Source of the DNA: a virus
Taxonomy: Duplodnaviria; Caudoviricetes
Length of the DNA: 34,019 bases
IMG/VR virus record: IMGVR_UViG_3300032242_004047
Coordinates: 1-34,019 of that record
Reading direction: 5' to 3' (one strand)
In this document: positions 270 to 32,129 of the stretch, piece by piece
Layout: the number at the start of each line of letters is the position of its first letter
Position numbering within the stretch: position 1 is the first letter of the stretch
Translations under genes and position numbers: made by a program
The notes under the pieces: generated by a model
Database searches by the model: none
What the model was told of the DNA's origin: nothing
The model's input: only the letters and a program-made list of their open reading frames with translations

Positions 270-374
270 AGAAGTGTTGGTGTGGATTTTGAGTGCTGTC
301 CGAGCGAAGAACCCGAACGCCTACAATCCCGTGTCAACACGCCCGGATAGTCAGCGGGGTCATTCTGCGGCGTG

Positions 375-3300
375 CTACGCAGGAAAGGAAACAAGCGGGA
401 TAGTGGCGCTATCGCTTCCAGTCCCGGCGGCATTGGTAGCGGTCACCACGCATTGCAGACTGCCTCCATTGTCCTCGGGCATAACCGTGTATGCCGGTGA
501 GGTAGCACCACCGAGACTTTCGCCATTCCGGTACCATTGGTAAGCGTATGCCGTTGGATTGTCGCTCCAGCTACCAGCCGAGCAGGTGATGGTCTCTCCC
601 AATGACGGCGACATGTTGTCGATCGTCAGAGGTTCGCTGTTTGCGGGGATCAAAATAAACGGCCCAATCGGCACCCAGCCCAGCTCGCTCCCACAGTCCT
701 TTGGATCCAGGACGAGATACACAGTTCGGTTATCGAGCTGTTTGACTATCCACCCGGTCTTGAGCGGCGTCACACCTAAGCGCTCCACGGCAGATGCTAC
801 CTTGAGCGGGACAGGTGTGGCGGGTGCTGGTCGCCAGCTTGCTCCATCAAACATGGCTACATCTCCTCTACTAGGACTGCCTCCGAAGAAGTCCCACTTG
901 ATGTTTCCTGCGCCGTAGAGCTGGTTTCCCCAATCATCAGCACTCGCACGACTGGCGTGCTCAGCCTCGTATGCCAGATCCGCTGTACCCGCACCGAGCC
1001 AGCTGTAATAGCCTGTTTGCTGCGCGTAGCTGCCAAAGATACAATTTCCGTACTCGTCGCAGTAAGCGTTCTGCGCAGAAACGTTTTGCAGGAAGGTCCC
1101 GTCTCCACTGAATGAGCCGTAGATCGAGTCGGAACTGAGGCTTCCTAGCACCTGCCAGTTTCCGCCGCCCATATCGGAGATCGAGTAGCCATAGGGGCTC
1201 GTGAGCTGGCTGGGCGTAGCGTACACGTTGTACAGACCCGAGCCATCACCACTGAAGGCTCCGTAAAACGTGCTGGCACTCATGTTCCCACTCACTTGCC
1301 AGTTTCCCCAGCCGGTGTCGTAAATCGAATACCCGTAGGGACTCGTGATTTGGCTCGGGGTCGCATACACATTGGAAAGACCAGAGCCATCTCCGCTAAA
1401 ATGGCTCGCGGTGATGCTTCCATTCACCTGCCAATTCCCCCACCCCGCGTCGTAGATAGAGTAACCGTAAGGGCTGTTGAGCTGGCTCGGCGTGGCGTAC
1501 ACATTCGACAGGCCGGAGCCGTCACCGGTAAATGCGCCGTAAAAACGGTTGGCACTGATTGTCCCGTTCACCGACCAGTTTCCCCAACCTGTGTCGTAGA
1601 TTGTGTAGCCATAGGGACTCGTGACCTGACTCGGCGTTGCATACACGTTGTAGAGGCCCGATCCGTCTCCACTGAAATGGCTCGCTGTGACGCTCCCATT
1701 CACCTGCCAATTTCCCCAGCCTGCGTCATAGATTGATGAGCCATAGGGACTCGTGAGCTGGCTGGGTGTGGCATAGACGTTGGAAAGGCCGGAGCCGTCA
1801 CCCGTAAAGGCTCCGTAAAACCGGTTGGCGCTCATGCTCCCATTCACCGACCAATTGCCCCAACCCGTGTCGTAGATAGAGTAACCGTAAGGACTCGTGA
1901 GCTGGCTCGGCGTCGCATACACGTTGTAGAGTCCCGAACCGTCTCCGCTGAAATGGCTTGCTGTGACACTCCCATTCACCTGCCAATTTCCCCATCCTGC
2001 ATCGTAGATAGAGTAGCCATAGGGGCTCGTGAGCTGGCTTGTCGTGGCATAGATATTGGACAGGCCGGAGCCATCGCCGGTGAAAGCTCCGTAAAACCGG
2101 CCGGCGCTTACGGTCCCCTCAACCTGCCAGTTGCCGCTTCCAGAATCGTAGATTCTCGATCCATAAGAACTCGTGAGCTCGCCCGGCGAGGCAGACACAT
2201 TGTACAGCCCCGAGCCGTCTCCTATAAAAGCTCCGCTGAACCTGTTAGCCTTCATCTCTCCGTCCACATGCCAATTCCCCGAGCCTGTGTCGTAGATCGA
2301 GTAGCCGTAGGGGCTGTTCAGTTGGCTGGGCGTTGCATACACGTTTGAGAGCCCGGAACCATCGCCGCTAAAGGAGCCGAAAAACGTGCCGGCACTCATG
2401 TCTCCCGTCACGTACCAGCTTCCCCAGCCTTCATCGTAAATCGCCGACCCATAGGGACTGTTCAGCGCAGGAATGACAATGTTGCTCAACTGCGAGCCAT
2501 CCCCAAAGAAGCTCGACGCCGTCACACTGCCCGATACCTGCATATTGCCAAGGCCATCGGAGGAGATCTTGGTGGCATCGCAGTTAAAGGCACCTCCAAT
2601 TGTAAGGACTGAGTCTCCGGCCAGACTCAAAAGCCACTCATTAAACTGTGGTTCAGTTTCTTCGCTCAGGTACCCGGTATCATTCGTGAACCCTGAAATG
2701 TTCGGCATCGTTTCGAGCCATGCACCAAACACAGGGTCTAATTCGTTCAGACCGGTCAAAAGCGACCCGTCACCTGTGAAACTTCCCGCAAACAACGGAG
2801 CCGTCACACTCGCATTCGAAAGCCACGAGCCATCGCCAATATCGTAAAGCGATGCGCCGTAGGGGCTGCTCAACTGGATCGAGCTCACCCCAGAAAGAGC
2901 CGTTCCATCCCCGGAGAACCACGGCGCTTCAATTCCGGAGGAGGACCGCCACACGCCTAAGTCGTCGGTTAAGCTAGCCCCATCGGTTCCCATCAGGCTG
3001 GGAACTTGAATCAGGCCACCCGAAATCCACTGCCCGCTGCCGTCATCATAAAACTGGAGCCCAAACTGGCTCGTAAGCCCAATGCCAGTCACGCCAGTCA
3101 CGTTACTACCGTCTCCCGCCAATGCTCCAGTGTAGGCGGACAGATCCGGCAATCCCCATGAATCGTTCCCCAGAAAGGCGAGCCCCGCATCTCCAGGAAG
3201 CCTCGCTTCAAACCACTTCACCACATCAAGCGGACTCATCACCACGTCCGACCGCAATCCATCCGCTGCCTCATCCTCTGTGGCAAAGACTGGAATCTCG

Positions 3301-3941: not shown

Positions 3942-3963
3942 GAGCACCGCCCCATGTCAACGG

Positions 3964-4487: not shown

Positions 4488-4985
4488 TCACCACTTTCCG
4501 AGCGGACAATGTTCCTGCGCCCACGAGGCCTTTTTGCGAATCCAACACCCACACTGACCGCACCGGTTCTGTTCGCTGCGCCACAATTCGCATCCTCGGC
4601 AGATAGCTAAAATGGCCTCCACTTCGTCAGGAGTGCGTCTGGGTCGGCCAGCTTTCAAATCGCGCAGAAGAGCACCAGCAAAGTTCATCGCCATCTCTCC
4701 AACTCCAGGAGGACTTGGCTCTTCGCCCTCATTCAATGCAGCGGTATGCCGTTCGTAATTTGACCAGACCTCCCGCGCGAGGTTCGCTGCACTGGGATGC
4801 GCTGCAACCATGCGCTCCCAAAACGGGAGAAGGTTAGGGTGTCCGCACGCTTCAAAGTCCTCGCGCATGGAGGAACGTTGCGGAACGCAGCCGCAAAGGG
4901 CCTGCAATTCTTCCAACACCTCCGGAACCTCTGCTGCCCGGAGCGTCAGCGCGTATTTGATCTTCTCGAGTCGCTCAGTATCCAT
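4488..4985 (-). CDS. Hypothetical protein with a C-terminal Cys cluster (DUF6171-like)
   Basis: C-terminus ICRGCELW...RCGQCGCWIRKKASWAQEHCPLGKW; ATG 4985 follows the upstream stop at 4991. Confidence 0.7.
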   Translation of the reverse strand: MDTERLEKIKYALTLRAAEVPEVLEELQALCGCVPQRSSMREDFEACGHPNLLPFWERMVAAHPSAANLAREVWSNYERHTAALNEGEEPSPPGVGEMAMNFAGALLRDLKAGRPRRTPDEVEAILAICRGCELWRSEQNRCGQCGCWIRKKASWAQEHCPLGKW

Positions 4986-4990
4986 CGGTA

Positions 4991-5212
4991 TCACCCCACG
5001 TACACGCACCCACAATGCGGTCCCGTCGGCGCTTCATTTACGGGGCAGCAGCAGCACCGGGAGCCATCGGAGTAGTTTCCGCACTTGTGGCCGTCCTCTC
5101 CAGGACAACAGCCCTTTGACTCACAACACGACGGACTGTTCCCAAACTCGCTGCCCTGACATTCGCAGCAGTTACAATCAGAGGGCAAACTCACGGTTTC
5201 AATGATCACCAT
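4991..5212 (-). CDS. Small cysteine-rich protein (15 Cys in 73 aa)
   Basis: ATG 5212 abuts the upstream stop (5214) and its stop abuts the next start; CC, CxC and CCCC clusters. Confidence 0.6.
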   Translation of the reverse strand: MVIIETVSLPSDCNCCECQGSEFGNSPSCCESKGCCPGEDGHKCGNYSDGSRCCCCPVNEAPTGPHCGCVYVG

Positions 5213-5213: not shown

Positions 5214-7439
5214 TCAGTAACTGTGGCTAAAGGTGACGCTCATCGAGTCGCAGTCGATCGTGGCCGATAAACTCTCAAGCCCTGCTCGGATGGATTCATC
5301 GATGTTCTCCGCGATCATGTCCCGGATGTCTTCAATCGCGTCTTTGGTGTCGTCCTGATCTGTCGCCAGCACCTCGATCGTGTGCCACTGACCATCGTCA
5401 CCAAAGAATGTGAATGTCTGGGGAGAAAATGTGCTCTCCCCAATATCAATCGTGCCGTCCTCGCCCAGATCCAGATTACCAGAGCTCAGCGTAGTTTCGT
5501 TCCCATCGGCATCCGTAAGCGTCAGGCTGCTAGAGTCCAAAACGACTGTGGCACCGTCTTCATCCGTGAGCGAAACCTCAGGCCCGTCACTGATATTAAC
5601 GCTCAGTTCGGCACCAGCCTCGTCACTCAGATACAGTTCGGGACCGCTCTCAAGATTCAGTCGGATCTGATTCCCCGAATGATCCTCCGTATCGTTCAAT
5701 TCAATCAGCGGCGTTTTGATCGAGTTGATCGTTAGCTCAGCTCCCATCTCGTCCCGGAGCAGAATCTCAGGCCCCTTTTTGAGGTTCAGATTGATCTGAT
5801 TGCCGAAGTCCGGATCGTCCCACGCATCGGCCAGAAGCAGAATCGGGTTTGTATCCTCGGCACTGAGCCTCAATCCTGCGTTTCCGTCGTTGCTGAGCTC
5901 AAAGAGCGGATACTTCACCCACTGACAAAGGATCTTGTTCTGCGCATCGTCGCTTCCCGAGGTGAAACACAGCATGTCGCTCTCCTCGCCGTAATCATCC
6001 CCAACAACCAGACTCAGGCCGCTCCCCGAGTCATCCAACGGATCGCCCACCTCCAATTCAAAGGCCCGAATCGGATCGGCTTGCCCCCGGGCGAACGAAC
6101 TCCATCCGGCTCCGGCGCACACATCCCAGCCTGAATCAGGATCACCGGAGCATTCCAGCCAGTCAGGCACGGCGTCCGGTGCAGCCAACGCGGCAGGGAC
6201 CAAACACTGAAGCGTCGTTCCAGTGGCCAGATCCTCCGCAAAGGTACTCACAACCTGAAGATGAGTACGCACCCTCTGTTCCACCACTGGGTTTCCAGTG
6301 TCGCCCACTGTGATCACAGCCAAAACGATTCGCGCCTTGGTCTGGGTGGGAGGATCTTCGCCGTCAGTCTCAATCTCGCCGCTCTCCCATTCATCGCCAT
6401 TACTGAAGGATTTGATGCTGGCCGTGTAGCTGTCGGGCCAGTCATCCCATTCAAGCTCCAGCCACACGAGGTCGAAATCGCCATTCCAACTCACCCAACC
6501 CGTGTCCTCCACGAGCAAGCCATCAATGTCGACCGTATCCTCGTAATCAAACGAGTTCAGCAGGAGCGATGCGTCCCGGACTCCGAACACGTAGGCATCG
6601 GGTTCCCAAGGATCGCTTCGAACCAGAACCTGAAATGGAAACTCGCCAGCGTTCTTGCTGCCAAACTCCCATGGGGTCCTCGCATCCGGTTGGTCCACAA
6701 TGGAAGCGGCTCCACCGTCTGCTCCGGTCCACGGTGAGCTAAAGGGGATCGCCACCGAAACCTTTAACCCCGGCTGATCTGCTTCCTCTGTGGTAACAGC
6801 AGGTACCAGCAGCAGATTGCTCTTAAGAAGCTGAACGAGCTTCACCTTGGTGCCATCAGGCAAGGTGATTGCAGTTCCCTCCCGCTTATCGCTCTCCGGA
6901 TCTGTTATCTCGGCGATGATCTGCCGGTAATACTCCTGGTAAGGCGTGTCATCCGTGTTGATTTCGATCGGATCAGGGAAGTTGCTCCATTCATCTTCAC
7001 CGACGGCACCGCTCTTGACCGCAATACCAACCAGCTTGTTATCCGAGTCGAAACTGCACTCGAGCCAGATCTTCCCGCCAACCGCTGGAACTCCGAAGGC
7101 GTTTTCTGGAGCCGATTCAGACCAAAGACCCCAGATCGTGTTGTCCTCCTCAATCCCATTCCGGTTTACGGAACTCATAACGTGGCTATCTGCCACAACC
7201 CCCAAAGTCGGCTCATCTCCTCCGGGGACCAATACCACTTCAAAAGGAAGCTGGGGCAAGGTGACAGAGCTTCCACCACTTCGGACCTGATCCACGGCGA
7301 GTGTCGTGCCACTCGCAGTTCGCTTCATCCGAACACCCGCCCCGGGACTGACCTGCGAGGCCCGCACAAAATCCAGTAACGCATTCCAGTCTGAAGCGCG
7401 AATCGGGTCACCGGGTTTGACCTTGGATGGGATGGGCAT
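5214..7439 (-). CDS. Large acidic tail-tip / baseplate-region structural protein
   Basis: 741 aa, very D/E-rich; N-terminal VKPGDPIRASDWNALLDFVR...PGAGVRM..T..GT motif of the kind seen in phage tail proteins; internal repeats; second gene after the tape measure. Confidence 0.65.
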   Translation of the reverse strand: MPIPSKVKPGDPIRASDWNALLDFVRASQVSPGAGVRMKRTASGTTLAVDQVRSGGSSVTLPQLPFEVVLVPGGDEPTLGVVADSHVMSSVNRNGIEEDNTIWGLWSESAPENAFGVPAVGGKIWLECSFDSDNKLVGIAVKSGAVGEDEWSNFPDPIEINTDDTPYQEYYRQIIAEITDPESDKREGTAITLPDGTKVKLVQLLKSNLLLVPAVTTEEADQPGLKVSVAIPFSSPWTGADGGAASIVDQPDARTPWEFGSKNAGEFPFQVLVRSDPWEPDAYVFGVRDASLLLNSFDYEDTVDIDGLLVEDTGWVSWNGDFDLVWLELEWDDWPDSYTASIKSFSNGDEWESGEIETDGEDPPTQTKARIVLAVITVGDTGNPVVEQRVRTHLQVVSTFAEDLATGTTLQCLVPAALAAPDAVPDWLECSGDPDSGWDVCAGAGWSSFARGQADPIRAFELEVGDPLDDSGSGLSLVVGDDYGEESDMLCFTSGSDDAQNKILCQWVKYPLFELSNDGNAGLRLSAEDTNPILLLADAWDDPDFGNQINLNLKKGPEILLRDEMGAELTINSIKTPLIELNDTEDHSGNQIRLNLESGPELYLSDEAGAELSVNISDGPEVSLTDEDGATVVLDSSSLTLTDADGNETTLSSGNLDLGEDGTIDIGESTFSPQTFTFFGDDGQWHTIEVLATDQDDTKDAIEDIRDMIAENIDESIRAGLESLSATIDCDSMSVTFSHSY

Positions 7440-8090: not shown

Positions 8091-9685
8091 GCGAATGCTG
8101 CGACTCCGGTTCCTGCCTTACCCGTAGTTCCTCGGGGGGCCGTGTTCTTTGCGATTTGTGAGAGCAACCCGGTCTGCCGCCGGTTTTCATCCAGTAGGGG
8201 ATCCTTCCCACCACCCACGGAGCGACCACCGCCTCCAATTTTGAAGAGGCTTTGCGTAAAGACTGCGCCAAACCTGCGCTTCTGCTCAGCTTCAATCTCA
8301 GGAATGGCTCCCGTGGCCTCTGGCCGGTTTTCAGCGTTGAACTTGTCTGCCGCCGCCTGATTGCTATCGACCATCTGCACCACTTTTCCCAAGGACTCCT
8401 CGAGCGCCTTCTCGGTGGAGGAGGTGTCAAACTTCGGAGCTGCGGCTGTTCCCGCCTGAAAAGCGTCACTCAGATTCAACACAAGCTCTGCCATTCGTAG
8501 CTGTACCTTTTCCAGTGCGGGGGAAAGCAGATCAGTGCCCTTATCACGATTCACTTCGCCTGCCGCTCTGATCTGCCCCGCTTCCGTCCGGACTGCTGCT
8601 GCTGCGCTCTCCGCCTTTTTGCCCACACCCGGCACGTCCTTGAGTTTTTCCAAGAGCAACGCCACGCCATCAAGCAGCAGCGCGATAAATTCCTGTGCAA
8701 TCCCCACCAATGCATCTCCGAGGCCCTTCCAGAACTCTGCCGTGGTCAGAACCTCGAATAGAGTGACAACATTAGGAATCACCTCGGCGAAGGCCTGTCC
8801 CATGGCAAAGACAATGCCCGTCAGGTTTTCCATCAGGAAATTGCAAGCAGCCTGGAAGCCGAGGATCAACGTGCCTGCAATTAGATTCCCAATCTCGCCC
8901 GAAGTGAAAGCCGTGATCAGCAGTGTGATCGCATCCCCGATCTGCTCACCGATCCCGCTCAGATCAATTTTGGAGAGAGAATCCAAAAGCGGCTTAATCG
9001 CAGGGCCAATACTCGCTGCCATCGGAGCCCACACTGCAGCAGTCTTTTTGGAAATCTTCTCCAGCTTCTTTGAAATATCCGCGAACAGGGCCGAGTTCTG
9101 ATCGAGAATCTTGGCGCGTTTTCCCACCTCATCGGCTGCGGTGGAAATCGCTCCAGAAGCAAACACCTTGAGCATCTCTTGTCCCTGTTTGCCAAAGATC
9201 GCCATGGCCGTGGCTGTGCGATCCGTTGGGTTTTGAATCTGCATGATCGCTGAGCCGATCGCCTTCATTTGATCGGCCGCGTTGAGTTTCCCGAGGTCCC
9301 GGATACTAAGGTGCAGTTTCGAAAATACATCCCGACTGGCACCGCCCTGCGCCGCATCGGCGATCACCTTTCGCATGCGCCCAATCATGGGAGCCACTCG
9401 GTCCGCCTCAACGCCACTCAGACTAAATGCTTTTTGCAGTACCACGAGGTCTTTGACCGAGGTTCCCGTAGCAGCCGAGAGATCCCTAAGTTGCCTCCCA
9501 ATATCAAACTGCTCCCGGATTTTAAGCGCCGTGGCGCTGGTCGTGATCGCAGCGAAGGCACTGATCAGAAGGCCCTTCACGCTCATCACACCTCCCTTGA
9601 GGGTATTGAGTCCCTTCTCAGCGCTTTTGATCCCCGCGCTGAATGCGCCGGTCTTGAGAATGAGTTCTGAGACGATCGCGCTCAT
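8087..9685 (-). CDS. Tail tape measure protein
   Basis: 532 aa, Ala/Gly/Leu-rich helical; typical segments QLRDLSAATGTSVKDL and DRTATAMAIFGKQG. Confidence 0.85.
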   Translation of the reverse strand: MSAIVSELILKTGAFSAGIKSAEKGLNTLKGGVMSVKGLLISAFAAITTSATALKIREQFDIGRQLRDLSAATGTSVKDLVVLQKAFSLSGVEADRVAPMIGRMRKVIADAAQGGASRDVFSKLHLSIRDLGKLNAADQMKAIGSAIMQIQNPTDRTATAMAIFGKQGQEMLKVFASGAISTAADEVGKRAKILDQNSALFADISKKLEKISKKTAAVWAPMAASIGPAIKPLLDSLSKIDLSGIGEQIGDAITLLITAFTSGEIGNLIAGTLILGFQAACNFLMENLTGIVFAMGQAFAEVIPNVVTLFEVLTTAEFWKGLGDALVGIAQEFIALLLDGVALLLEKLKDVPGVGKKAESAAAAVRTEAGQIRAAGEVNRDKGTDLLSPALEKVQLRMAELVLNLSDAFQAGTAAAPKFDTSSTEKALEESLGKVVQMVDSNQAAADKFNAENRPEATGAIPEIEAEQKRRFGAVFTQSLFKIGGGGRSVGGGKDPLLDENRRQTGLLSQIAKNTAPRGTTGKAGTGVAAFA

Positions 9686-10323
9686 TTGAACCCAGCCTCC
9701 TTCGCTGCCCGCTTTTGGAAATGATCAACCTGTCGGTCCATAGCAGTGGCCCGCTTGTCAAGTGAGCGCTGGATACGACTCACAAGCCCTTTCACGCTGG
9801 AAGCGAACTTCACCGCGTTCGAAATAACGATACGACATTCGCTCAGGGTAAACGTGATTTTGACGCTACCTCTGCCATTACCGTGGCGTGTGATCCAGTC
9901 CGGCACCTTCGCTCCGAGCTGCATTGCCGCTGCATTCCAGCCGCTGGCAAGAATACCCACTTTGCCGAGTTCCTTTTGAATGTAAGCAGCAAGGCTTGTG
10001 ACGCGGATCTTCTTCTTGAGCGCAACCCGGACTCGGCCGGTGGTCGGATCCCGAAACTTAGCGTGAATCCCTGCAAGATCGCTACTCGCCTTAGATGAGG
10101 CCGACTGCCGCATGATCTTGCGCAAGTCTGCCTTGATCGCAGATTCGCCTCCGCGCCGGTTGGCTTTGAAGTCCTTGTTGGGAGGCGTGATCAGAATGAC
10201 GTCCTGAACAAAGAGCTTCGCCTGTTCTTTAAGAACCTCAGCGCGTGTACGCCTTGAGTTTTCTTCAAACCGCTTGAGGGCCGCACGGAATCCCCGGTCA
10301 TCGAATTTCAGCTCAGCACTCAT
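9682..10323 (-). CDS. Basic neck / tail-completion protein (HK97 gp10-like)
   Basis: 213 aa, K/R-rich; FDDRGFRAALKRF...LITPP...G.LASGW pattern; TTGACAC-N12-ATG upstream. Confidence 0.6.
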   Translation of the reverse strand: MSAELKFDDRGFRAALKRFEENSRRTRAEVLKEQAKLFVQDVILITPPNKDFKANRRGGESAIKADLRKIMRQSASSKASSDLAGIHAKFRDPTTGRVRVALKKKIRVTSLAAYIQKELGKVGILASGWNAAAMQLGAKVPDWITRHGNGRGSVKITFTLSECRIVISNAVKFASSVKGLVSRIQRSLDKRATAMDRQVDHFQKRAAKEAGFK

Positions 10324-10547
10324 TCTTCTCCCTCAGTGTCAAATTGTAGAAACCTCTCTATCCTCGTGATTTGGTCCGAGGGATCGGGTAGCGGGGGTAC
10401 GGTCCAGCAGTTAGCCGCACGCAATGCGCAGTGGTGGTACTGGAGAGATTCCGCAAGCGAGAGTTCCCACAGGATGAAGTCACGGCTCCAACCGGTTTCT
10501 TTCGCCAGGGCGAACACGCGGGCGGCGGTCTGCCCCGGCTCAATCAG
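10320..10547 (-). CDS. C-terminal extension of the tail assembly chaperone (gpGT-like), reached by -1 frameshift
   Basis: The -1 frame is open from the slippery site C CCA AAC (10553-10547) and reads KLIEPGQTAARVFALAKETGWSRDFILWELSL... Confidence 0.7.
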   Translation of the reverse strand: MIEPGQTAARVFALAKETGWSRDFILWELSLAESLQYHHCALRAANCWTVPPLPDPSDQITRIERFLQFDTEGEE

Positions 10548-12285: not shown

Positions 12286-12656
12286 CCCCCTGAAGCGGTG
12301 TCAACCCCTGCGACTAGCTCGATCTCCGCCACCCAACGGCTGTGCTCCAGAGAGGTTTGGCTTTTACGAACGAAGTAGCCGCGAATGTTTAGCCCGTTCG
12401 GCCGAGTAGCCGCACCCACAACCAGGGGCTGATCCAGCCATTGCCGCAGTGTATTGAGATGCGCATCATGACCTGCGGTGTCTCCCTCGAAAGCAGGCGT
12501 CTCCAATCGAAACCGGATCGTTGCTTTCCAGAGGGAGCCCACCGTGTGTTCGCAATCTGGGCAGTGAACGATGATAGCGGATCCCTCCACGGTACTTTCT
12601 TCAGCGGATACGCCGCTCAGGTATTGAATCCCCGAGAGCCCGTGGAGTGAACTCAC
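12282..12656 (-). CDS. Putative tail terminator / tail completion protein; true 5' end may extend to about 12692
   Basis: Lies between the head-tail joining and tube genes; the frame continues upstream as (ATA)NTLIEAAFLAAV with no ATG. Confidence 0.55.
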   Translation of the reverse strand: MSSLHGLSGIQYLSGVSAEESTVEGSAIIVHCPDCEHTVGSLWKATIRFRLETPAFEGDTAGHDAHLNTLRQWLDQPLVVGAATRPNGLNIRGYFVRKSQTSLEHSRWVAEIELVAGVDTASGG

Positions 12657-13095: not shown

Positions 13096-13148
13096 GCCAC
13101 AGAGGCGGTGTCAATGTGGGCCTGAATCGGCGGCGGGGAAAAAGCCCC

Positions 13149-13177
13149 TTGCAAACAATAACGCCCCACGTTATTAT
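13149..13177 (+). promoter_or_regulatory. Sigma70-type promoter of higBA with an overlapping palindromic operator
   Basis: -35 TTGCAA (13149-13154), 17-nt spacer, -10 TATTAT (13172-13177); inverted repeat AATAACG-N5-CGTTATT (13157-13175); GTG start at 13186 implies a near-leaderless mRNA. Confidence 0.75.
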
Positions 13178-13185
13178 TTTGCCTA

Positions 13186-13467
13186 GTGATTCAAAGTTTT
13201 AACTGCGAAGAAACCAGGAAGGTCTACGACGGAAAGGTCTCAAGGAGACTTCCTCAAGACCTCCTGAACGTCATGCAGCGCAAATTGCGAATGCTTGATG
13301 CCGCCGTAAAGCTCATCGATCTAAGAATCCCTCCAAATAATCACCTTGAAGCCCTAAAGGACGATCGAAAAGGCCAATACAGCATTCGCGTAAACCGCCA
13401 GTGGCGCGTATGTTTCCAGTGGACTGAAAATGGACCGTCGAACGTAGAAATTGTCGATTACCACTAA
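13186..13467 (+). CDS. higB: HigB-family (RelE/ParE superfamily) toxin
   Basis: MIQSF...RKLRMLDAA..L.DLRIPPNNHLEALK.DRKGQYSIRVN.QWRVCF.W......VEIVDYH is the typical HigB pattern. Confidence 0.92.
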   Translation: MIQSFNCEETRKVYDGKVSRRLPQDLLNVMQRKLRMLDAAVKLIDLRIPPNNHLEALKDDRKGQYSIRVNRQWRVCFQWTENGPSNVEIVDYH

Positions 13468-13472
13468 ATCCT

Positions 13473-13784
13473 ATGAACGCTGAAGATGAACTGCTACCGC
13501 TAGTAGCTCCCGGCGAAATTTTAGCTGAGGAGTTCCTTATTCCTCTTGGCATCTCCGAATATCGCGTTGCCAAAGAGATCGGCGTGCCTCCGCGTCGGAT
13601 CAATGAGATTATTCACGGCTTGCGAGCAATCACGCCGGATACAGCATTACGTTTGGCGAGGTATTTCGGCACCACGCCGCATTTCTGGATTAACCTGCAA
13701 ACTGATTACGAGTTGAGAAAGTTGGACAGGGAAGGGTCACTTCCCCCAATAAATCGCTGCGAAAAATTGCCAGCAGTGGCGTAG
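13473..13784 (+). CDS. higA: HigA-family HTH antitoxin
   Basis: PGEILAEEFL.PLGIS..RVA..IGVP.RRINEII.G.RAITPDTALRLARYFGTTP.FW.NLQ..Y. Confidence 0.92.
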   Translation: MNAEDELLPLVAPGEILAEEFLIPLGISEYRVAKEIGVPPRRINEIIHGLRAITPDTALRLARYFGTTPHFWINLQTDYELRKLDREGSLPPINRCEKLPAVA

Positions 13785-13846
13785 GTGTGCGCCCACTTCG
13801 TTGTTCCTCGGGACGAGTAACTATCTGCCCGACGCCGTTAAGTAAA

Positions 13847-14002
13847 ATGAAGTGGGGCATCGCGAGCATCCTATTCCTCATGGGGCTATTTGCGCCCCGT
13901 TTGGCAGGGAATCGTCCGACAAATAACTGGTTAGTTTGGATTGTGAGGCGATTACTCCGCCCAATCCTCTGGGCAGCAGCACTGGGACTTTTAGCTGCAT
14001 AA
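13847..14002 (+). CDS. Possible small membrane protein (51 aa)
   Basis: MKWGIASILFLMGLF...WLVWIVRRLLRPILWAAALGLLAA has two hydrophobic stretches; follows higA and its stop abuts the capsid terminator hairpin. Confidence 0.3.
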   Translation: MKWGIASILFLMGLFAPRLAGNRPTNNWLVWIVRRLLRPILWAAALGLLAA

Positions 14003-14034
14003 AAAGCCCCCGCACCGTCTCCAGTGCGAGGGCT
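14001..14034 (-). terminator. Rho-independent terminator after the major capsid gene
   Basis: Minus strand AGCCCTCGCACTG-GAGA-CGGTGCGGGGGCT-TTTT: 13-bp stem with G-U pairs, GNRA loop and U tract. Confidence 0.85.
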
Positions 14035-15449: not shown

Positions 15450-16295
15450 TGCGAATGTCTTCGTGTCAACGCGAAGGCACATCTTCGCTGAAGATGCGTG
15501 ATACGAACGCAGCCGCCGTAGCGCCTCCGAGCGGTCACGTACCACTCCAGCGAGATTGAATTTCTGAGCCTGTTTGCCTGAGAAATCCTGTCCTTCCATG
15601 GCCTCTGCGGGGATCTTGCGCCCACGCGAAAGCACCGCTGCGTGGAAATCACCGGCCACCTCCTCGATATTCGACTGGATCATGAGCCGTTGATCTTCCG
15701 TAAGCGGAACACCCGGCGTGCACATCCCCTTAAACTTCCCAACCGAGAATACCTCCACTTTGATGCCCTGACTCCGTAGCGCTTCAGACTGATCAACAAC
15801 CGGCTGCACCACACCGATGGAGCCCACCCGTGCGCTTGGTGTCACGTAAATGGCCTGTGCCTGGCTCGCCACCCAGTACGCAGCCGAGCACATCAGCCCG
15901 GAGCTGAAGGCGTAGACCGGCTTTTCTTTGCAAGTGTCTGCCACTGCCTGAGCCAGTTCAGGCGTTCCTGTAACCGCTCCACCGGGCGAATCGACATCCA
16001 GAAAAACGGCTTCGATATCCGGCCGCTCCAGAGCTTCCTCCAGCGCCTCAAGTAACTCCTCCGTATCAGTCGCTCCGAACAGAATCTGCGAAAACACATC
16101 AGGCCTCCGCATCATCGGCCCGTTCAGCGCTACAATTCCAATCCCATCCTCAACGCAGAGCAGTGGTGAATTGGGCCCAGCGGTGAGTTCGCTACAACCA
16201 TTCGGGAACAGCCGTGAGGCCGCTGCCATTGCCTGAAACGCAGCAGGTTGAATCAACCACGGTTGTTTCAGGAGCAGGACTTCAGCGAGCGTCAT
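14985..16295 (-). CDS. Prohead protease, peptidase S49 (SppA/lambda C-like), with C-terminal coiled-coil scaffold region
   Basis: LDVDSPGG, MCSAAYWVAS and VGSIGV motifs; TTGACAC-N12-ATG. Confidence 0.9.
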   Translation of the reverse strand: MTLAEVLLLKQPWLIQPAAFQAMAAASRLFPNGCSELTAGPNSPLLCVEDGIGIVALNGPMMRRPDVFSQILFGATDTEELLEALEEALERPDIEAVFLDVDSPGGAVTGTPELAQAVADTCKEKPVYAFSSGLMCSAAYWVASQAQAIYVTPSARVGSIGVVQPVVDQSEALRSQGIKVEVFSVGKFKGMCTPGVPLTEDQRLMIQSNIEEVAGDFHAAVLSRGRKIPAEAMEGQDFSGKQAQKFNLAGVVRDRSEALRRLRSYHASSAKMCLRVDTKTFAMSKSIEDQLSEAVARVHALEADAQASAALLTEASASAEKFKQQIAALSHERDQVGTELGSVRKALEAANAKALSLETREQDLEKRAALRAAEIVASTGTSNPARITPDGDAEGHSPERQTPEERIAHYNDLIKRKQPKAAAEFYQKHIQTLFNA

Positions 16296-16310
16296 GCACT
16301 CGTGCTCGTG

Positions 16311-17771
16311 TCAATTATCCTGATCCCCAGCTTTCGTATTCGCTGGCTCAGGGACAGCAGCACCCGGAACGATTGCTCCCGTGCTCGGGTGCCACAGAAA
16401 ATCTAAAGGGACGCTATACTTCGCTGCCAAATCCATGAGGAGTCGCGCGTCCTGCGCCCGAATCTCAGCCTGCTCCTCAAAGTCCAAACCCAGTTCTGCA
16501 TACGACTCGGACAGCGTTTTGAGACCAGTCTCCACATCAGCACGGTTTTGCTGTGCCTCACGCCCGGCATCCACTGTTACCCGGGCCGGCTTTTGGAACC
16601 GAACTTTCCACCAATCTGCAACCACCGGAAGGGCACCCGTAGCAACAGCGTCTCCGATCACATACGCCCAGACAGGCCGCAAAAGACGCGAAATCAGAAT
16701 CAACTGCCGGAAAGCAAACCGGCGTCCCGCCTTGGCAACGATAAGACGCACACCCGCACCTCCCACTTTGCTCGAGTCTGCTGCGAACTCAAACGGAAGC
16801 ACACCCAGCGCTGAATTACGGTGTAAATGCTCGAGAAATCCAGTGAACACAGGACTCGGCCGGTTTGACTGGAAACTCTCGAGAGATTCGTTTGGTTTCA
16901 GCGCCACGAGTTTGCCTCCCACAATCCGCTGAAGCTCTGTGGGATCGCTTCCATCAGGGCCGGACGCCATTGAGGGCAGGCTGAAGTCGCCGCTCTCATC
17001 CAATTCTCCGCGCTCGGTTTTTAGCACCCTGGCAATGTCGGCATTGTCCTTTACCGCATGCTTTTCCAGGGCCAGCAGCTCCATCTCGTCGATGATGTGG
17101 TTGATTGAGTGCTGGAGCGTGGGTGCATGGCGGATCGCTGTGGCTGATTCAGGTTCAAATACATGAAGCACCGAGTCTGCCGGCAGATCTCGAACTCCTC
17201 CTCCGTCCTCGATAGTGCGATAAAACGTAGGGGCTCCGAACGCATCTACCCCAATCCCATCATGAGAAGCAGTGGAACCGGCAAGATCTCCGATTCGGTG
17301 GGACTCGATGAGTTGCAAGCGAGGGCGTCCATCGGCTCCTCGGGTCTTGTGAACGAAGTATTCTCCGTCCACGTCCATGGCGCGGCAGATAATCGACTGG
17401 CATTCCTCAAACGAAAACCGATTCGTCACCTCACAACGCGCAGCCCATCGGCTAAAATACTCCTCGGCCTGCTTGTTCCAGAGCGGATCCCCAGTTTGAG
17501 CCTGCGGCTTGATGCCGTCACCCGTCGAGTAGATGGCCATGTTCCCAACCAGCTCCCGAACAAAACCCGAGTTCTTGTGCAGGTAGCGCGAGCGTCGCAC
17601 GAGTTCCCGCCGGACTGCGGGCGATAGATCCCGTTTGCCGTCCTGCGGAGGCACACCCGGTACACGGTTCCTGCGCTGGGAGTAGTTGGCTCCTTCATAA
17701 GCCGACCACCACGCCTTCGGGACTAGTACAGGCGGCAGGAAGCGGAGCGCATACCGTACAAGCGGGTTCAT
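16311..17771 (-). CDS. Portal protein, lambda family
   Basis: 486 aa; RELVRRSRYL.KN.GFV, ..DGEYF, RLQLIES.RI, VDAGREAQ......V..GL.T patterns; between gpW-like gene and protease. Confidence 0.88.
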   Translation of the reverse strand: MNPLVRYALRFLPPVLVPKAWWSAYEGANYSQRRNRVPGVPPQDGKRDLSPAVRRELVRRSRYLHKNSGFVRELVGNMAIYSTGDGIKPQAQTGDPLWNKQAEEYFSRWAARCEVTNRFSFEECQSIICRAMDVDGEYFVHKTRGADGRPRLQLIESHRIGDLAGSTASHDGIGVDAFGAPTFYRTIEDGGGVRDLPADSVLHVFEPESATAIRHAPTLQHSINHIIDEMELLALEKHAVKDNADIARVLKTERGELDESGDFSLPSMASGPDGSDPTELQRIVGGKLVALKPNESLESFQSNRPSPVFTGFLEHLHRNSALGVLPFEFAADSSKVGGAGVRLIVAKAGRRFAFRQLILISRLLRPVWAYVIGDAVATGALPVVADWWKVRFQKPARVTVDAGREAQQNRADVETGLKTLSESYAELGLDFEEQAEIRAQDARLLMDLAAKYSVPLDFLWHPSTGAIVPGAAVPEPANTKAGDQDN

Positions 17772-18028: not shown

Positions 18029-18053
18029 GCTCGAGGTGGTGTGTCAACGGGGG

Positions 18054-19219: not shown

Positions 19220-20541
19220 TCCCCGGCCTCCGTGTCAATCTGGGTACGCGCTGAAAACTCAGCCATCGCATCGATCTCCACCCCATCGCGTACTCGCAAC
19301 ACCGCTCGGTCTTCCCCCAGACTCAGCCAGCGTTTTACGATCACATCGCAGTAAGCGGGGGAGATCTCCAAGCCGTAGACCCGCCGTCCCAACTGTTCGC
19401 CCGCAATCAGCTGGCTTCCACTCCCGCTAAATGGCTCGTAACACAGTCCGCTCCTCTTGGTGTGCTGGCGCATTGCGATCGCAAAGCACTCCAGCGGCTT
19501 TGGCGTGGGGTGATCCGGCCGCTCATCATTGTTAAGCCCCTCAATCTCCCAGACGCTCCGCTCATAGTCGCCAGTCTCCCGGGGTGGCTTGTTCCCTTTA
19601 ATCCAGCCCATGAAGCAGGGCTCGTGCGCCCATAGGTACCAGGAGCGGGTCAGAATCGGTCGATTCGGTTTGGCCCAAATGATCTGTTGATGGACAAACG
19701 CGCCGTTCTTCTCCCACGCATCCTCCACCATTCTCTGCCTGCGGCTTGCGTGCCAGCAGTACCACGCAGCCGCTGGCTCAATCGCCTCGGCAATGGCTAC
19801 CTTGATGAAGCGGTCATAGAGGTCGCAGTTTCGCTCATCATCGGCTTCATCCCACGTTGCTCCGTAGGTTTCGCTCCAGTCGGTGTTTTTCGTCGATGTC
19901 GATCCGGGATGATTCGTGCCGTTGTAGCCGACCAAGTACGGCGGATCGGTTGCGAAGAGGATCGCCCGCTCGCCATTCATCAAGCGCCTAACATCGTCTG
20001 CATTGGTTGAGTCACCGCAGAGCAACCGATGATTACCGAGCAGATACAAATCACCCGGCTTCGTGAGTGGATTGACTGGAGGCGGAGCAACTGTGTTTTC
20101 AGTCTCCTCCTTAGTTTCGAGGCGATCGAGTAAATCGTCGAGTGAGTCCTGATCAAAACCCGTAAGATCGAGATCAATCTGGCCATCGAGTTCTTTGAGC
20201 AACGCCTTGAGCGCGTCGTCATCCTGTTCAGCCAGTTCAGCAATGCGGTTGTCCCCGATCAGATCCGCCCACTCCGCAGCCTCGTTCTCGTAGTTTTGAA
20301 AGTCCACAGGCACTCGCTCGGATTCCAGGAGCTTCGCCGCTTCGAGTCTGCCGTGGCCTTTCACTACAAACCCGGAGCGCGAAGACACCACAATGGGGGA
20401 GCGCCATCTTTGAGCCCGGATGATTTTGGCGAGCAGTTTGATTTGGTTCTCCGGATGGCGATTCGGATTCCGGGGATTGGGTACCAGCTTCTCGATATCG
20501 ACGAGTTCGGTGTGGGCGCAAAAAACAGCGGGATCGGTCAT
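19216..20541 (-). CDS. ParB-N domain DNA methyltransferase (N6-adenine/N4-cytosine, beta-type motif order)
   Basis: LVPNPRNPNRH..GHGRLEAA (ParB-like), HRLLCGDST, TDPPY, HPTPKP, EPFSGSGS, GLEISPAYCDVIV; start placed at Met 20541 (13 nt after TTGACAC). Confidence 0.9.
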   Translation of the reverse strand: MTDPAVFCAHTELVDIEKLVPNPRNPNRHPENQIKLLAKIIRAQRWRSPIVVSSRSGFVVKGHGRLEAAKLLESERVPVDFQNYENEAAEWADLIGDNRIAELAEQDDDALKALLKELDGQIDLDLTGFDQDSLDDLLDRLETKEETENTVAPPPVNPLTKPGDLYLLGNHRLLCGDSTNADDVRRLMNGERAILFATDPPYLVGYNGTNHPGSTSTKNTDWSETYGATWDEADDERNCDLYDRFIKVAIAEAIEPAAAWYCWHASRRQRMVEDAWEKNGAFVHQQIIWAKPNRPILTRSWYLWAHEPCFMGWIKGNKPPRETGDYERSVWEIEGLNNDERPDHPTPKPLECFAIAMRQHTKRSGLCYEPFSGSGSQLIAGEQLGRRVYGLEISPAYCDVIVKRWLSLGEDRAVLRVRDGVEIDAMAEFSARTQIDTEAGE

Positions 20542-20552: not shown

Positions 20553-20579
20553 AAGTGTCAACGACTTGCTTTGACACTT
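20553..20579. promoter_or_regulatory. Inverted repeat of the TTGACAC motif between divergent units
   Basis: AAGTGTCAA-CGACTTGCT-TTGACACTT, perfect 9-bp arms with a 9-nt spacer. Confidence 0.6.
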
Positions 20580-24241: not shown

Positions 24242-24314
24242 ATGCTGACAGCAGCGGTGTCAAACAGCGGCGCCTGAGGGGCAGTCCTTATGAAGATTAC
24301 GTCTGCGATGTGAC

Positions 24315-24624: not shown

Positions 24625-25185
24625 TTACTCGTCCTTCTCGGCGACGGTCTGCCGTGTGCGCTGCACCTCTGCGTGGAGATTCACGAACCACTGTAGCTCG
24701 TTGCTCAACACTCGCAGCGCGTCCTCACCCCAAGCCTCCATGGGAGCTTTCTTCGAGCGCGTGTTAAACCAGAGCCGGAACTTGTCCAGAGGCTTAACAA
24801 ACTTGACCCAAGGCGCATCGGCCGGGATGGCTCGTTCAGGCTTGGGTTCCTCGCGAAGGATGCCCGTTGCGAGGTAGGCTTGGCGTAGGGTGTTGCAGTC
24901 CTCCAAATAACCGCTCACATGTGAGCGCTTAAACAGGGCCATGTAACGGCGGGCTGTTTGCTCGGAGATGTCGGGGCAGTTAGCTTCGAGCCAGTCGAGC
25001 CAACCGCCCCGCTCCTTACCGAGCTGCTTCTGTAGGGCCTGCTTTTGATCGACCATCAGTCGTCCGCACTCGAACGCTCGCTCCACGGCTTTTGCGATTT
25101 GCTCCTTCGCGCCGGTGGCGAGAGATAGAGCGTCAGCGTGGGCGAGATTGATTTGTTCAGCGTGATTGACGACGATTTCGTTCAT
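24625..25185 (-). CDS. DUF3102-like protein
   Basis: A.ECGRLM...K......GGWLDWLEANCPDISEQTARRYM pattern; TTGACAC-N12-ATG. Confidence 0.7.
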   Translation of the reverse strand: MNEIVVNHAEQINLAHADALSLATGAKEQIAKAVERAFECGRLMVDQKQALQKQLGKERGGWLDWLEANCPDISEQTARRYMALFKRSHVSGYLEDCNTLRQAYLATGILREEPKPERAIPADAPWVKFVKPLDKFRLWFNTRSKKAPMEAWGEDALRVLSNELQWFVNLHAEVQRTRQTVAEKDE

Positions 25186-25711
25186 CCCACTTAGCGCGTG
25201 TCAACTGGGAGTAGACCATGCGGGCCTTCTCGGACTTCATCCCTCGACTGGGAGTGAGCCCAAAGGTCTTGCACCATTGCGTGGCGATCTTCGAAAAGGC
25301 CGCACGTGATACCCCATGTCGTTTGGCCAGAGCTGTTTGGCTTAGGCCATCTAGCGAAAGAACGCCCGTGGCAAAGCAGATCGCATCAAAGACCAGTAGC
25401 GGGTTTGGCGCTGACCGAATGCGGGCGCAGAATGATGCAAGTGTATCTGCGCGAAGCTCGGCGTCATCGGATGCGGCAGTCGGTGCAGGGTCGATCTGCG
25501 CGGCGATGTCGGGCGCGTACGAAGCGGCGGATAGGTCGCTTGCGTTCTGGCGTTGGCCGTGAGCGTCTTTCGGCACGTCCGCATGAGCCAACCCGGCTTC
25601 GGCGAGCTTTGCCTTCTCCTCGGCAGGCAGCGATGCCACCCAGGCTTCGTAGGCGCGACGGTACTCGGCGTCCCGGACATTTTGTCGGTGGGTGTAGTTT
25701 TCGTAACTCAT
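25157..25711 (-). CDS. Hypothetical protein with a C-terminal HTH, candidate transcription regulator
   Basis: LSQTALAKRHGVSRAAFSKIATQW; lies between the replication and packaging modules. Confidence 0.65.
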   Translation of the reverse strand: MSYENYTHRQNVRDAEYRRAYEAWVASLPAEEKAKLAEAGLAHADVPKDAHGQRQNASDLSAASYAPDIAAQIDPAPTAASDDAELRADTLASFCARIRSAPNPLLVFDAICFATGVLSLDGLSQTALAKRHGVSRAAFSKIATQWCKTFGLTPSRGMKSEKARMVYSQLTRAKWDERNRRQSR

Positions 25712-29886: not shown

Positions 29887-30882
29887 TTAGCGATTGGTGG
29901 TTTTGGTGGTGGTGCGGCGCAGGCTGACGCTGCCTTTGCCTTGTTGGATCAGGTCTTCCGGGAAGGGCTTCTCAGAGGGCATCTTCTCCGCCCAAAGCTG
30001 CCGGAACTTGGACGCGCTCATGTTTCCATACGCCCCGAGGACAGCACCGAAACCTAGTCGATCGATGTAACGGCCGACGGCATCGGGGACGACGAACTCA
30101 GGGGCTTTGCGACTGGAAACTTTCCAACCGGGGATCAGCTTGCCAGCAAGGAGACGCTCCTTTGCGACCGCTTCCGCGCGCTCCCGGAAATCATCGAGCG
30201 TGGCGCAGGCGGTAAGGAACTGGCCGAGCTGAGCGTTGTCCGCCAGCAGCAGTTCAAAGTTGAACTCTGGGTCGGATTGCTTGAGGGCGGAGGCCGCAAG
30301 TTGGAGCCGTGCCGGGCAACTCTCCGCCTTGAAGCACCAGCTGCAGTAGTCGCAGGGCGTCGGCTCTTTCTCAGGCTGATTGTAGCGAGCAATTACCGCT
30401 GCAACGATCTCCCATGCCTCCTGGTAGCTGAACCGCAGGGTGATGAGTTGGCGCTGGTCGCAGAAAAGCAGATGAGTCGTCCACTCGCTCAGGAAATGAG
30501 CTTCCATGAACCCCAGCGCGTAAGCCGCCATTTGCTCGCGGTAGTTGCGAATCTGGCCAGTCTTCAAATCAGCACTGAGGCCAAGCTCTGGCACCCACGC
30601 ATCGACCGTCCCGGTCATGCCTTGTGTGGCGATCTTGCAGTCCGCATCCGCAGTAACAATGCGGCTCTCGCCAGCAATTGCTTTGAGGGTGTGAATGGCC
30701 CAATCCACTGCCGACAAATCCTCCGTCAACGTGGAACCATCATCAGAACGGTCTCCATGGATTCGACGCCGAAAGATCTCATCGAGCTTCGTGCCTCGAG
30801 CGGCTTGCGGGCCAGCATCCGGATTGGGCTCGTAGCAGGCGCAGACAGCCAGCTTTGGAAGCATTGAGGGTCGCAGGCTCAT
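29887..30882 (-). CDS. PD-(D/E)XK (Cas4-like/DUF2800-like) exonuclease
   Basis: LRPS.L..L..C, AARGT, GTVDA..DLKTG....QM..YA, PCDYCSWC....CP. Confidence 0.8.
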   Translation of the reverse strand: MSLRPSMLPKLAVCACYEPNPDAGPQAARGTKLDEIFRRRIHGDRSDDGSTLTEDLSAVDWAIHTLKAIAGESRIVTADADCKIATQGMTGTVDAWVPELGLSADLKTGQIRNYREQMAAYALGFMEAHFLSEWTTHLLFCDQRQLITLRFSYQEAWEIVAAVIARYNQPEKEPTPCDYCSWCFKAESCPARLQLAASALKQSDPEFNFELLLADNAQLGQFLTACATLDDFRERAEAVAKERLLAGKLIPGWKVSSRKAPEFVVPDAVGRYIDRLGFGAVLGAYGNMSASKFRQLWAEKMPSEKPFPEDLIQQGKGSVSLRRTTTKTTNR

Positions 30883-31859
30883 TGCGCACCTCCCACCGTG
30901 TTGAAGTCCGATACGGCCTTCAGGAAGCGCTCAGGAGCACTCAGAACCCGGGCGACGTAGTCGGGGGCAAGGTTCTGCCAGGTTTGGCCGGGCTTGATCT
31001 GTTGCCGGGCGAGGAGGAAGGCATTTACCGCGCTTTCATTGGAGTCAATCAGAGCGCCGAGTTGATCGAATAGATTATTTGCCGTGATCGGCCGCGGTTC
31101 AGGCTTTTGCGTTTGCGCAGCCTTACCAGATTGAAAGCTGCTAGCGATCGACTCGAAGGCAAACTTCACCTTCTCTTCGAAGCTATGGCGATTCTTGGCG
31201 TCCCAAGCAGCGGTGTGGGTGGTGTAGAGCACCCGTTCACGTCCGCCGACACCGCGCTTGGTGCCATTGTCGTTCTCAGCCACCTTAGTGAACCAGTTGG
31301 CGAAGAGCAGCATGTCGCACCATTCCTTAAAAAGAGGTGCCACCTGCTTTGAGAGCTTGAGCTCATAGCGGTCGTAGGCTCCTGCTGCGTCTGGTTGTTC
31401 AAATTTGACGATCCGGCAATGAGCCAAAACCACGACGTTCATGCCTCGCTTCAAAAGCCGATCCAGCGATGCAAGAAACTTGGCAGCTTCTTCTGCGAGC
31501 ACCACGTAACCCTTGCCGTATCCGAACTGCTCGATGTTGCTTTTGTTCTCTCGACGGCAAACCTCGTCGATCAGGAGCTTTTCCAGCCAATCCGCAGTAT
31601 CAATCACGAGGGTGTTAAACTCGTGCGGGAGTGTGGCCAGAGCGGTGATCGCTTGAGTCACATGTTCCCAAGACTCCGGGGCAGGCAGCCGGGCGCAATC
31701 TAGATGGTGAGTGCCGCCCTCAGTGTCGAGGAATACGGGGTTTGGAAACTGCGCGGCCAGGCTACTTTTACCGATACCTTCTGGGCCGTAGATGACGGCT
31801 TTTTGTGGACGTTGGATTCGGCCAACGCGAATCGATTGGATAGGGTTATTAGATGACAT
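30879..31859 (-). CDS. AAA_24 / Sak4-like ssDNA-annealing ATPase
   Basis: IYGPEGIGKS, FLDTEGG, TLVIDTADW, GYGKGY, VVLAH, EWCD.LLF, AWDAKNR. Confidence 0.88.
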   Translation of the reverse strand: MSSNNPIQSIRVGRIQRPQKAVIYGPEGIGKSSLAAQFPNPVFLDTEGGTHHLDCARLPAPESWEHVTQAITALATLPHEFNTLVIDTADWLEKLLIDEVCRRENKSNIEQFGYGKGYVVLAEEAAKFLASLDRLLKRGMNVVVLAHCRIVKFEQPDAAGAYDRYELKLSKQVAPLFKEWCDMLLFANWFTKVAENDNGTKRGVGGRERVLYTTHTAAWDAKNRHSFEEKVKFAFESIASSFQSGKAAQTQKPEPRPITANNLFDQLGALIDSNESAVNAFLLARQQIKPGQTWQNLAPDYVARVLSAPERFLKAVSDFNTVGGAQ

Positions 31860-32129
31860 AGAGTTTCAGACTTGGGTTGCTTTGGCGCACAGCGGAGTGC
31901 CGTGCGGTGTCTGAAACAAAGCGTGTCAACGCGCATTGGTATGTAGGGGGGCGAAAGGCCCATAAACGCCCATTTGGGTGGCAATTCGGGAGCGGATTTA
32001 CGCCACTCTGGGCGCTGGGTAGGCCCATATTTGTCCCACCCTCTCCCATATGGTGCGGAAAAAACCCATATTGGAACCGCAGTGAAAACTGCGGCCATGC
32101 TGGGCCGAAATGAATAGAAATGATCCGCT

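Follow-up and report, generated by a model that had tools for sequence, protein, structure and literature searches.

Textbook accounts credit promoter opening in bacteria to sigma region 2 acting at a −10 element, or to sigma-54 together with an ATPase. The present analysis concerns a 34,019-nt stretch of a Caudoviricetes phage (IMG/VR record IMGVR_UViG_3300032242_004047, positions 1 to 34,019; "the window" below means this whole stretch), in which the hexamer TTGACA recurs on the minus strand at a near-fixed distance before start codons, and a 184-residue protein encoded there, ORF184. Based on sequence comparison and structural models, TTGACA with a spacer of 13–14 nt is best explained as a compact late promoter of temperate phages of Verrucomicrobiota that is read by ORF184 in sigma's place, a reading that we hold to be fairly probable. 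What would be new is how the promoter is laid out and that its factor has no region 2, neither of which is described in any publication searched; neither the motif nor the ORF184 family was found described in the literature covered, which left most subscription journals outside.

The kind of system is already known, since phage late sigma substitutes (T4 gp55, D29 gp53) and dense leaderless late promoters (Thermus phage Lalka27a) have been described. The clamp helices of the polymerase β′ subunit are the binding site of both sigma region 2 and T4 gp55 (PMC7892883). Like the role proposed for ORF184, gp55 is a phage late factor on these helices that serves single-box late promoters. However, gp55 has a sigma-2 fold, reads a box of −10 type and depends on gp33 as well as on the sliding clamp (PMC7892883), whereas the box considered here is TTGACA at −19 to −14. 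The D29 protein gp53 is a small phage helix-turn-helix (HTH) protein that displaces host sigma from core and was modelled in the sigma pocket, its promoters being unknown (bioRxiv 10.64898/2026.10.05.756390). ORF184 resembles gp53 as a small phage HTH protein predicted at the sigma site, but the gp53 model contains parts that resemble sigma domains 2 and 3, and gp53 is expected to read a −10, whereas ORF184 would provide one docking helix and an HTH for a box without a −10. A comparison of 138 ORF184 homologues with Pfam found no sequence link to gp53: its family, PF25684, was not among the 22 families matched at E ≤ 0.01, the presence of that model in the library being unconfirmed. Lalka27a has many late promoters, mostly leaderless, and a suspected phage factor, as proposed here; its TAGGGT element is, however, a normal-position −10 that lies 6 nt from the start site (bioRxiv 10.64898/2026.04.20.719267).

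At lambda PR′, similarly to the layout proposed here, an HTH sits on a −35-like hexamer next to the bubble, the arithmetic gives 13 nt, and the Q gene occupies the position that ORF184 holds (PMC9388147, PMC4604602). Lambda Q differs in having one site per genome, in acting on elongation, in needing a −10-like pause element and in that host sigma region 4 reads the hexamer. The Francisella proteins MtvS1 and MtvS2, a split sigma-like pair, are, like ORF184, small non-canonical factors predicted on the β′ coiled coil, but they are chromosomal, work as two proteins and use a promoter with a canonical −10 (bioRxiv 10.1101/2024.09.12.612765). The start-associated sequences of Cluster K mycobacteriophages are also phage-specific repeats just upstream of many starts; in contrast to TTGACA, the repeat is a 13-bp GGGATAGGAGCCC with potential for rRNA pairing and a proposed translational role (PMC3203893). 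The cultured Verrucomicrobia phage P8625 (KP792622.1) shares related head genes (capsid 30% identical), TTGACA and an apparently leaderless design with the window. However, its TTGACA lies 30 nt before the ATG (vs. 13, a difference of 17), its −10 words are partly consensus, and it has no ORF184 homologue. The 30-nt spacing was found at four annotated starts, and none of 14 plus-strand sites lay 13–17 nt before an annotated start; two short unannotated ATG frames (20 and 6 codons) follow TTGACA at 13 and 15 nt. At 5412, 10736 and 15558 of P8625, inverted arms GTATC...GATAC/AATAC surround the −10 position; they are common to these 30-nt sites and operator-like.

The sequence-only reading had described the element as TTGACAC followed after 12 or 13 nt by a start codon, with 14 copies on the minus strand and one on the plus strand. 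An exhaustive count returned exactly these numbers (100 shuffles, both strands: mean 3.73, maximum 10), and all coordinates and spacers agreed on recount. The real unit is the hexamer TTGACA rather than TTGACAC, with 19 copies on the minus strand vs. 2 on the plus strand; counted from the hexamer end, the spacers become 13 and 14 nt. Eleven of the 19 minus-strand hexamers are followed by ATG or GTG at 13 nt or by ATG at 14 nt (background 0.048 per site, p = 1.7e-10), and all of these are among the 16 hexamers downstream of ORF184, vs. none of the 3 upstream. With the terS site at 16 nt included, the window holds 12 start-linked boxes, one of which (TTGACAA, before the tape measure) the earlier list had omitted. 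The seven minus-strand hexamers with no start at 13–16 nt are at 31929, 27133, 26842, 18220, 8430, 4344 and 337. Conserved protein N-termini start at the motif-linked ATG or GTG, and the capsid and tail-tube genes of the window have no box of their own.

The comparison with related phages covered 90 phage-strand loci (1.3 Mb) with 402 unique spacers; the loci are related and the counts are not independent. A related capsid gene was found at 15 genome loci, of which 12 are labelled Verrucomicrobiota, Spartobacteria, Chthoniobacteraceae, Akkermansiaceae, Haloferula or Verrucomicrobiaceae, and the other three carry other labels on assembled bins. The near-fixed spacing recurred in this set: 155 of the 402 sites have their first start at 13 nt (106 ATG, 49 GTG) and 64 have it at 14 nt (all ATG), followed by 15 nt (16 sites), 16 nt (30), 17 nt (9), 18–39 nt (28) and 5–12 nt (11). 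GTG is enriched at 13 nt only (51 vs. 2 at 14 nt). This one-sided cut-off, with starts rare below 13 nt and a tail downstream, fits the 5′ end of a transcript. At 13–14 nt the motif is tied to the starts of 49 gene families, often from within the upstream gene. TTGACA is the exact sigma-A −35 consensus, and variation is tolerated at its sixth base only.

The stretch between box and start had been called GC-rich and unrelated from site to site. The first part stands (71% GC, C-rich, A-poor), but the spacers are not wholly unrelated: their first half is C-rich, with G at +11/+12 and a pyrimidine at +13. Across the related phages, G occupies +12 in 127 of 155 sites with the start at 13 nt, in 50 of 64 at 14 nt and in 41 of 83 at 15–40 nt; in motif-free long open reading frames (ORFs), G stands two bases before the ATG in 143 of 804. 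Within the scaffold family, the distance from box to ATG varies between 13 and 23 nt, while 25 of 33 members keep G at +12 and 29 of 33 a purine at +14. Bacterial polymerase favours a purine at +1 and a pyrimidine at −1 and rarely shifts by more than one base up or two down (PMC5730371).

The earlier statement that no TANNNT box follows the motif was borne out, with 0 of 219 directly after the box (+2 to +7) and 0, 0 and 5 of 219 at 16, 17 and 18 nt. Shine-Dalgarno (SD)-like words precede only 8 of 219 starts. An N4-type hairpin promoter was rejected, as no position pair exceeded z 2.0 in either 155 or 74 non-redundant sites and spacers show no conserved hairpin register; spacer folding showed a mild overall excess (−2.99 vs. 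−2.49 ± 0.19 kcal/mol). A sigma-54 promoter was also considered; judged by its consensus, the spacing does not fit.

Gene context was examined at two junctions. Among 17 relatives with a capsid identity of at least 53% (a count that excludes 8 distant rows), the box lies 55–77 nt past the capsid stop in 12, directly behind a GC-rich hairpin whose U-tract is strong in some relatives and weak in others. Four, including the window with its higBA genes, have a 0.5–1 kb insertion, and one has no box within 1.5 kb. Cargo is inserted in the interval that separates the capsid terminator from the following box: higBA in the window (13115–14005), and 0.5–1 kb inserts in L016, L056 and L033. In another subgroup, 12 portal–protease junctions (L106 included) were compared. 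Two of them have the box 16 nt ahead of the protease ATG, and in three it is absent or variant. In five, a tRNA-Met gene begins 5–6 nt past the predicted +1, three of these having no start codon at 13–17 nt; Rfam confirms two of the five genes (L245 and L246). In a further two (L242 and L249), the box leads a 108-nt multi-hairpin RNA ahead of the protease ATG. This RNA folds at about −44 kcal/mol, its closing stem begins 2 nt after the predicted +1, and it has no Rfam or ARAGORN match. Genes of tRNA-Met(CAT) type occur in late operons of L056 (4625–4700), L061 (17875–17949), L106 (19138–19209), L241, L245, L246 and L248, and a link with leaderless initiation is possible.

The pattern had been called genome-wide, which holds for the late phage region but not for host genes. 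The complete host genome G001 contains 57 TTGACA-N13/14-ATG matches, 30 of them within four prophage intervals; the remaining 27 are similar in number to the N10/11 control (25 in total, 2 in prophage intervals, so 23). Six 20-kb host stretches contained 16 TTGACA, none with a start at 13–14 nt, and start-linked TTGACA numbered 0 and 1 of 195 in pooled host loci. In front of host rRNA operons the sites appear canonical, a TTGACG being followed after about 17 nt by a hexamer that begins with TA. A host-wide signal of Verrucomicrobiota is rejected, as the matches cluster in prophages. The suggestion that the box might be complementary to host 16S rRNA also failed: the 16S 3′ tail is CCUCCUUU in all three hosts, a normal anti-SD sequence, and TGTCAA occurs in one of the three 16S genes, at an internal position. 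With no conserved complement in these three rRNAs, pairing of the box with 16S rRNA is rejected.

ORF184, of an unnamed HTH family, is the likely reader of the box; it lies directly before the first motif-led gene, and the motif is found downstream of its homologues. The gene order of the window is lambda-like, on the minus strand: Sak4, exonuclease, SSB, helicase, primase, ORF184, terminase, methyltransferase, portal, S49 protease, capsid, tail, tape measure and fibre. Around 16 ORF184 homologues, the upstream sequence (121 kb) contains 7 TTGACA, one with a start, and the downstream sequence (130 kb) contains 71, of which 54 have a start at 13–17 nt, including phages with unrelated head genes. 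Homologues at E values of 1e-11 to 1e-26 head motif-bearing regions in L092, L093, L098 and L103. A conserved TTGACA-TAAGGTGGAGTAG site with no start at 13–17 nt lies 1.5–2.6 kb after the ORF184 homologues of L076–L081, L084 and L107–L109.

The family comprises 97 near matches and 1,181 cluster representatives at E ≤ 0.001. The ORF184 model shows two helices in residues 3–38, a low-confidence linker and a C-terminal HTH (residues 78–184; predicted local distance difference test, pLDDT, 93.5). Sigma70_r2 was matched by none of the 138 homologues at E ≤ 0.01, and the model suggests that ORF184 does not have a full sigma region-2 domain for reading and melting a −10 element. Sigma70_r4 was matched in 12 of the 138 (best E 2e-5), and against 16 host extracytoplasmic function (ECF) sigmas the ORF184 profile match spans only 24 columns of region 4.2. 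In fold comparison, the best hit of the HTH was AlgU (Z 5.8, root-mean-square deviation 3.6, 69 aligned), and Z scores of 5.0–5.8 were tied with other HTH folds. Foldseek with the full model returned nothing at E ≤ 0.001, a sequence search of the PDB returned only AdcR (E 0.26), matches in the Atlas were unnamed viral clusters, and the best matches in BFVD were uncharacterised.

A complex of ORF184 with the β flap and the N-terminal 333 residues of β′ of host G001 was predicted as three chains with custom alignments. Its complex score was 0.67, vs. 0.00 for the best of three controls; among reference pairs, 116 of 157 solved ones and 2 of 215 mismatched ones attain the score mark, a calibration that is rough for three chains with custom alignments. 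Across runs, contact agreement was at least 49% and partner pLDDT at least 58. The predicted contacts run from ORF184 residues 6–24 and 39–46 to β′ 265–288, 302–304 and 125–131, the first of which we take, from its sequence, to be the clamp-helix coiled coil. ORF184 is accordingly placed by the prediction on the β′ clamp helices, the site of sigma region 2. The residues at this face are the most conserved of the family (Y6 80%, Q10 75%, Y17 91%, W24 91%), and the HTH has conserved residues of its own (R136 81%, S140 94%, K141 86%). No confident β-flap contact was listed in the prediction, an absence not counted as evidence.

In the mechanism that we propose, ORF184 would be made late in the early operon and would then switch on all boxes. 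A helix of ORF184 would take sigma's seat on the clamp helices of the host polymerase, and its HTH would sit on TTGACA at −19 to −14, near the usual place of sigma region 3, a position that has a precedent in the lambda Q loading complex (PMC9388147). Transcription would begin 14 nt past the hexamer, at the purine, with no −10 element; most transcripts would be leaderless, with the ATG or GTG as +1, and others would have leaders of 1–30 nt. Promoterless genes behind each box would share its message. For melting of the GC-rich stretch from −12 to −1, the candidate ideas are supercoiling, coupling to replication and the conserved basic C-terminal helix of ORF184. That the box is a compact promoter, whether read by ORF184 or by host sigma-A region 4, appears quite likely from the comparative data, and the structural models make ORF184 a reasonably probable sigma substitute. 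Whether it represents a new class of initiation factor, with a helix on the clamp, an HTH on TTGACA and core starting 13 nt downstream, without sigma, a −10 or a sigma-2 melting module, and with leaderless late messages made gene by gene, is close to an even question, tilting slightly towards no.

Several observations weigh against this reading, in addition to the relatedness of the loci compared. A total of 89 of the 402 sites have no start in range, and a purine at +14 is not enriched where the start is at 14 nt (26 of 64) or at 17–40 nt (22 of 37), suggesting that the start site probably wobbles by one base and that the distant classes hold noise. The tRNA-led boxes of L245 and L246 also have an ATG at 15 nt, and tRNA-led boxes may reflect one insertion event or a few independent ones. 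RNA contigs of a relative extend upstream through the head-closure box (by 141 further nt) and through the scaffold box; the data come from one metatranscriptome (9% of words, unstranded contigs, no transcript ends), and the crossing speaks mildly against clean 5′ ends, though it is unstranded. ORF184 homologue regions without the motif occur in L097, L099 and L100–L102, and no variant motif was seen by eye beside the distant homologues of L100, L101, L102 and L097. In L100, L101 and L102 (about 4500–5200, minus strand), the distant homologue is a lone antisense gene in a motif-free phage-like cluster. Conversely, the motif occurs in the absence of ORF184 in G406 and G413, which also lack replication genes, and a homologue is absent from 5 of 10 viral records searched, those being 38–68% complete. 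The modelled HTH resembles other HTH folds as closely as it does sigma region 4. The docking may be a memory of solved sigma–clamp and NusG–clamp complexes, in a set-up outside the calibration; NusG and RfaH use the same clamp-helix site (PMC6391919).

The same compact promoter might instead be read by host sigma-A region 4, after a phage factor (ORF184 or another) has moved region 4 from the flap to beside region 2, like lambda Q; we consider this somewhat unlikely. The box is exactly the −35 consensus with only its last base variable, host region 4.2 is canonical, and ORF184 occupies the Q gene position. In the lambda complex, region 4 is moved to a place just upstream of region 2, where it displaces region 3 (PMC9388147), and TTGACT of PR′ stands one base before +1 in the printed sequence (PMC4604602), which by our arithmetic (1 + 6 + 6) gives 13. 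However, no −10-like hexamer follows the box in the C-rich, A-poor stretch of any of the 219 sites, and the window has 12 start-linked sites, neither of which matches a lambda Q-type site. Moreover, ORF184 is predicted on the very clamp helices that sigma-2 needs (in a complex job from which sigma-A was absent), and the recognition helix of ORF184 itself is conserved.

Alternatively, ORF184 could be an elongation factor of the RfaH/NusG kind that is loaded at TTGACA, with a pause at start codons or a cut 13 nt downstream giving leaderless messages. RfaH, besides sharing the clamp-helix site with NusG, loads at a DNA element (PMC6391919), the RNA contigs cross two boxes, and processing could give a fixed 5′ end. 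This is nevertheless distinctly unlikely: boxes stand behind a terminator hairpin or 0.5–1 kb insertions and head divergent genes, where no elongating polymerase is expected, none of the 138 homologues matched the NusG family, and the G–pyrimidine–purine junction fits initiation.

The sequence-only reading had left two branches open. Its single-box promoter with leaderless messages and a phage factor gains support from sequence comparison and from the predicted polymerase contact. The other branch, an RNA element that stands in for the SD sequence by recruiting either ribosomes or a translation activator of the phage, would fit a box that is exact, strand-specific and tied to 49 families' starts, often inside the upstream gene, with few SD-like words, but it appears quite improbable. 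The box also leads genes for tRNA-Met and for a structured RNA where no start codon is near, the spacing is one-sided and reaches 13–23 nt in one family, the hosts have a normal anti-SD and no conserved 16S complement, and the capsid and tail-tube genes do without a box. A promoter rather than a ribosome signal is indicated by the G and purine that stay fixed to TTGACA as the ATG slides, by the adjacent terminator, by the tRNA-Met lead and by the lack of a −10, SD or 16S complement. An ordinary sigma-A −35 with starts about 16 nt inside genes, mis-called starts or chance, suggested by the identity with the −35 consensus, is highly improbable given the window p value, the lack of a −10 at 16–17 nt and the conserved N-termini that begin at the ATG or GTG.

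Table 1. Boxes and neighbouring features of the window (spacers counted from the end of the hexamer)
Feature	Position	Strand	Description
ORF184	25157..25711	−	184-aa candidate late factor; gene directly preceding the motif-led cluster
TTGACA	25199-25204	−	13 nt to ATG 25185 of a 186-aa gene; first motif-led gene; box within ORF184 3′ end
TTGACA	24258-24263	−	16 nt to ATG 24241 of terminase small subunit (terS)
TTGACAC	20571..20577	+	Sole plus-strand heptamer, back to back with methyltransferase box; no start at 13-17
TTGACA	20556-20561	−	14 nt to ATG 20541 of ParB/DNA methyltransferase
TTGACA	19233-19238	−	ATG 19219 of a 232-aa gene, putatively holin-like from position and hydrophobic N-terminus
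TTGACA	18042-18047	−	ATG 18028 of an 86-aa gene overlapping the portal start
TTGACA	16309-16314	−	ATG 16295 of S49 head protease
TTGACA	15464-15469	−	Within protease gene; in-frame ATG 15449 at 14 nt gives a 154-aa scaffold-like protein, upstream of capsid gene
Hairpin	14005..14034	−	Intrinsic-terminator-like, 13 pairs and T run, after capsid gene
higBA promoter	13149-13177	+	TTGCAA-N17-TATTAT, canonical sigma-A type; −35 end to GTG 31 nt
TTGACA	13109-13114	−	ATG 13095 of head-closure-like gene, the first on the minus strand past capsid terminator and higBA insertion
TTGACA	12299-12304	−	ATG 12285 of a 66-aa gene ahead of two tail-tube-like genes
TTGACA	10337-10342	−	ATG 10323 of a 213-aa gene
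TTGACA (TTGACAA)	9756-9761 (span 9682..9761)	−	In-frame ATG 9741 at 14 nt; 19-codon ORF whose TGA overlaps tape-measure ATG 9685
TTGACA	3955-3960	−	GTG 3941 of tail fibre gene
TTGACA	332-337	−	GC|G signature at predicted +1 (318); ATG of last 72-aa ORF 49 nt further (269)
Hairpin	13-32		Terminator-like

The higBA promoter (Table 1), which the earlier reading had correctly called canonical and placed at that distance from its start, is by its sequence an internal contrast to the compact sites. The plus-strand box has a start on a divergent gene in some relatives. Divergent back-to-back boxes, 7–9 bp apart, precede the methyltransferase gene both in the window (20556–20576) and in the G001 prophages. 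The motif-led mini-ORF before the tape measure looks like a leaderless mini-ORF for translational coupling; the same site and peptide start, with 19–20 codons, were found in L016, L025, L046 and L004. A gene for an SMC/AAA ATPase (32130–34019, plus strand) is divergent from the replication module and is possibly defence cargo or host flank.

If the proposed mechanism is true, a 184-residue factor without region 2 acting at GC-rich single-box promoters would be a minimal form of transcription start, and what core polymerase needs for melting could be examined directly with purified components. A switch of one protein and 19 bp could also be a compact orthogonal expression tool. For the phages themselves, the motif pins down where genes begin in a widespread group of Verrucomicrobiota prophages.

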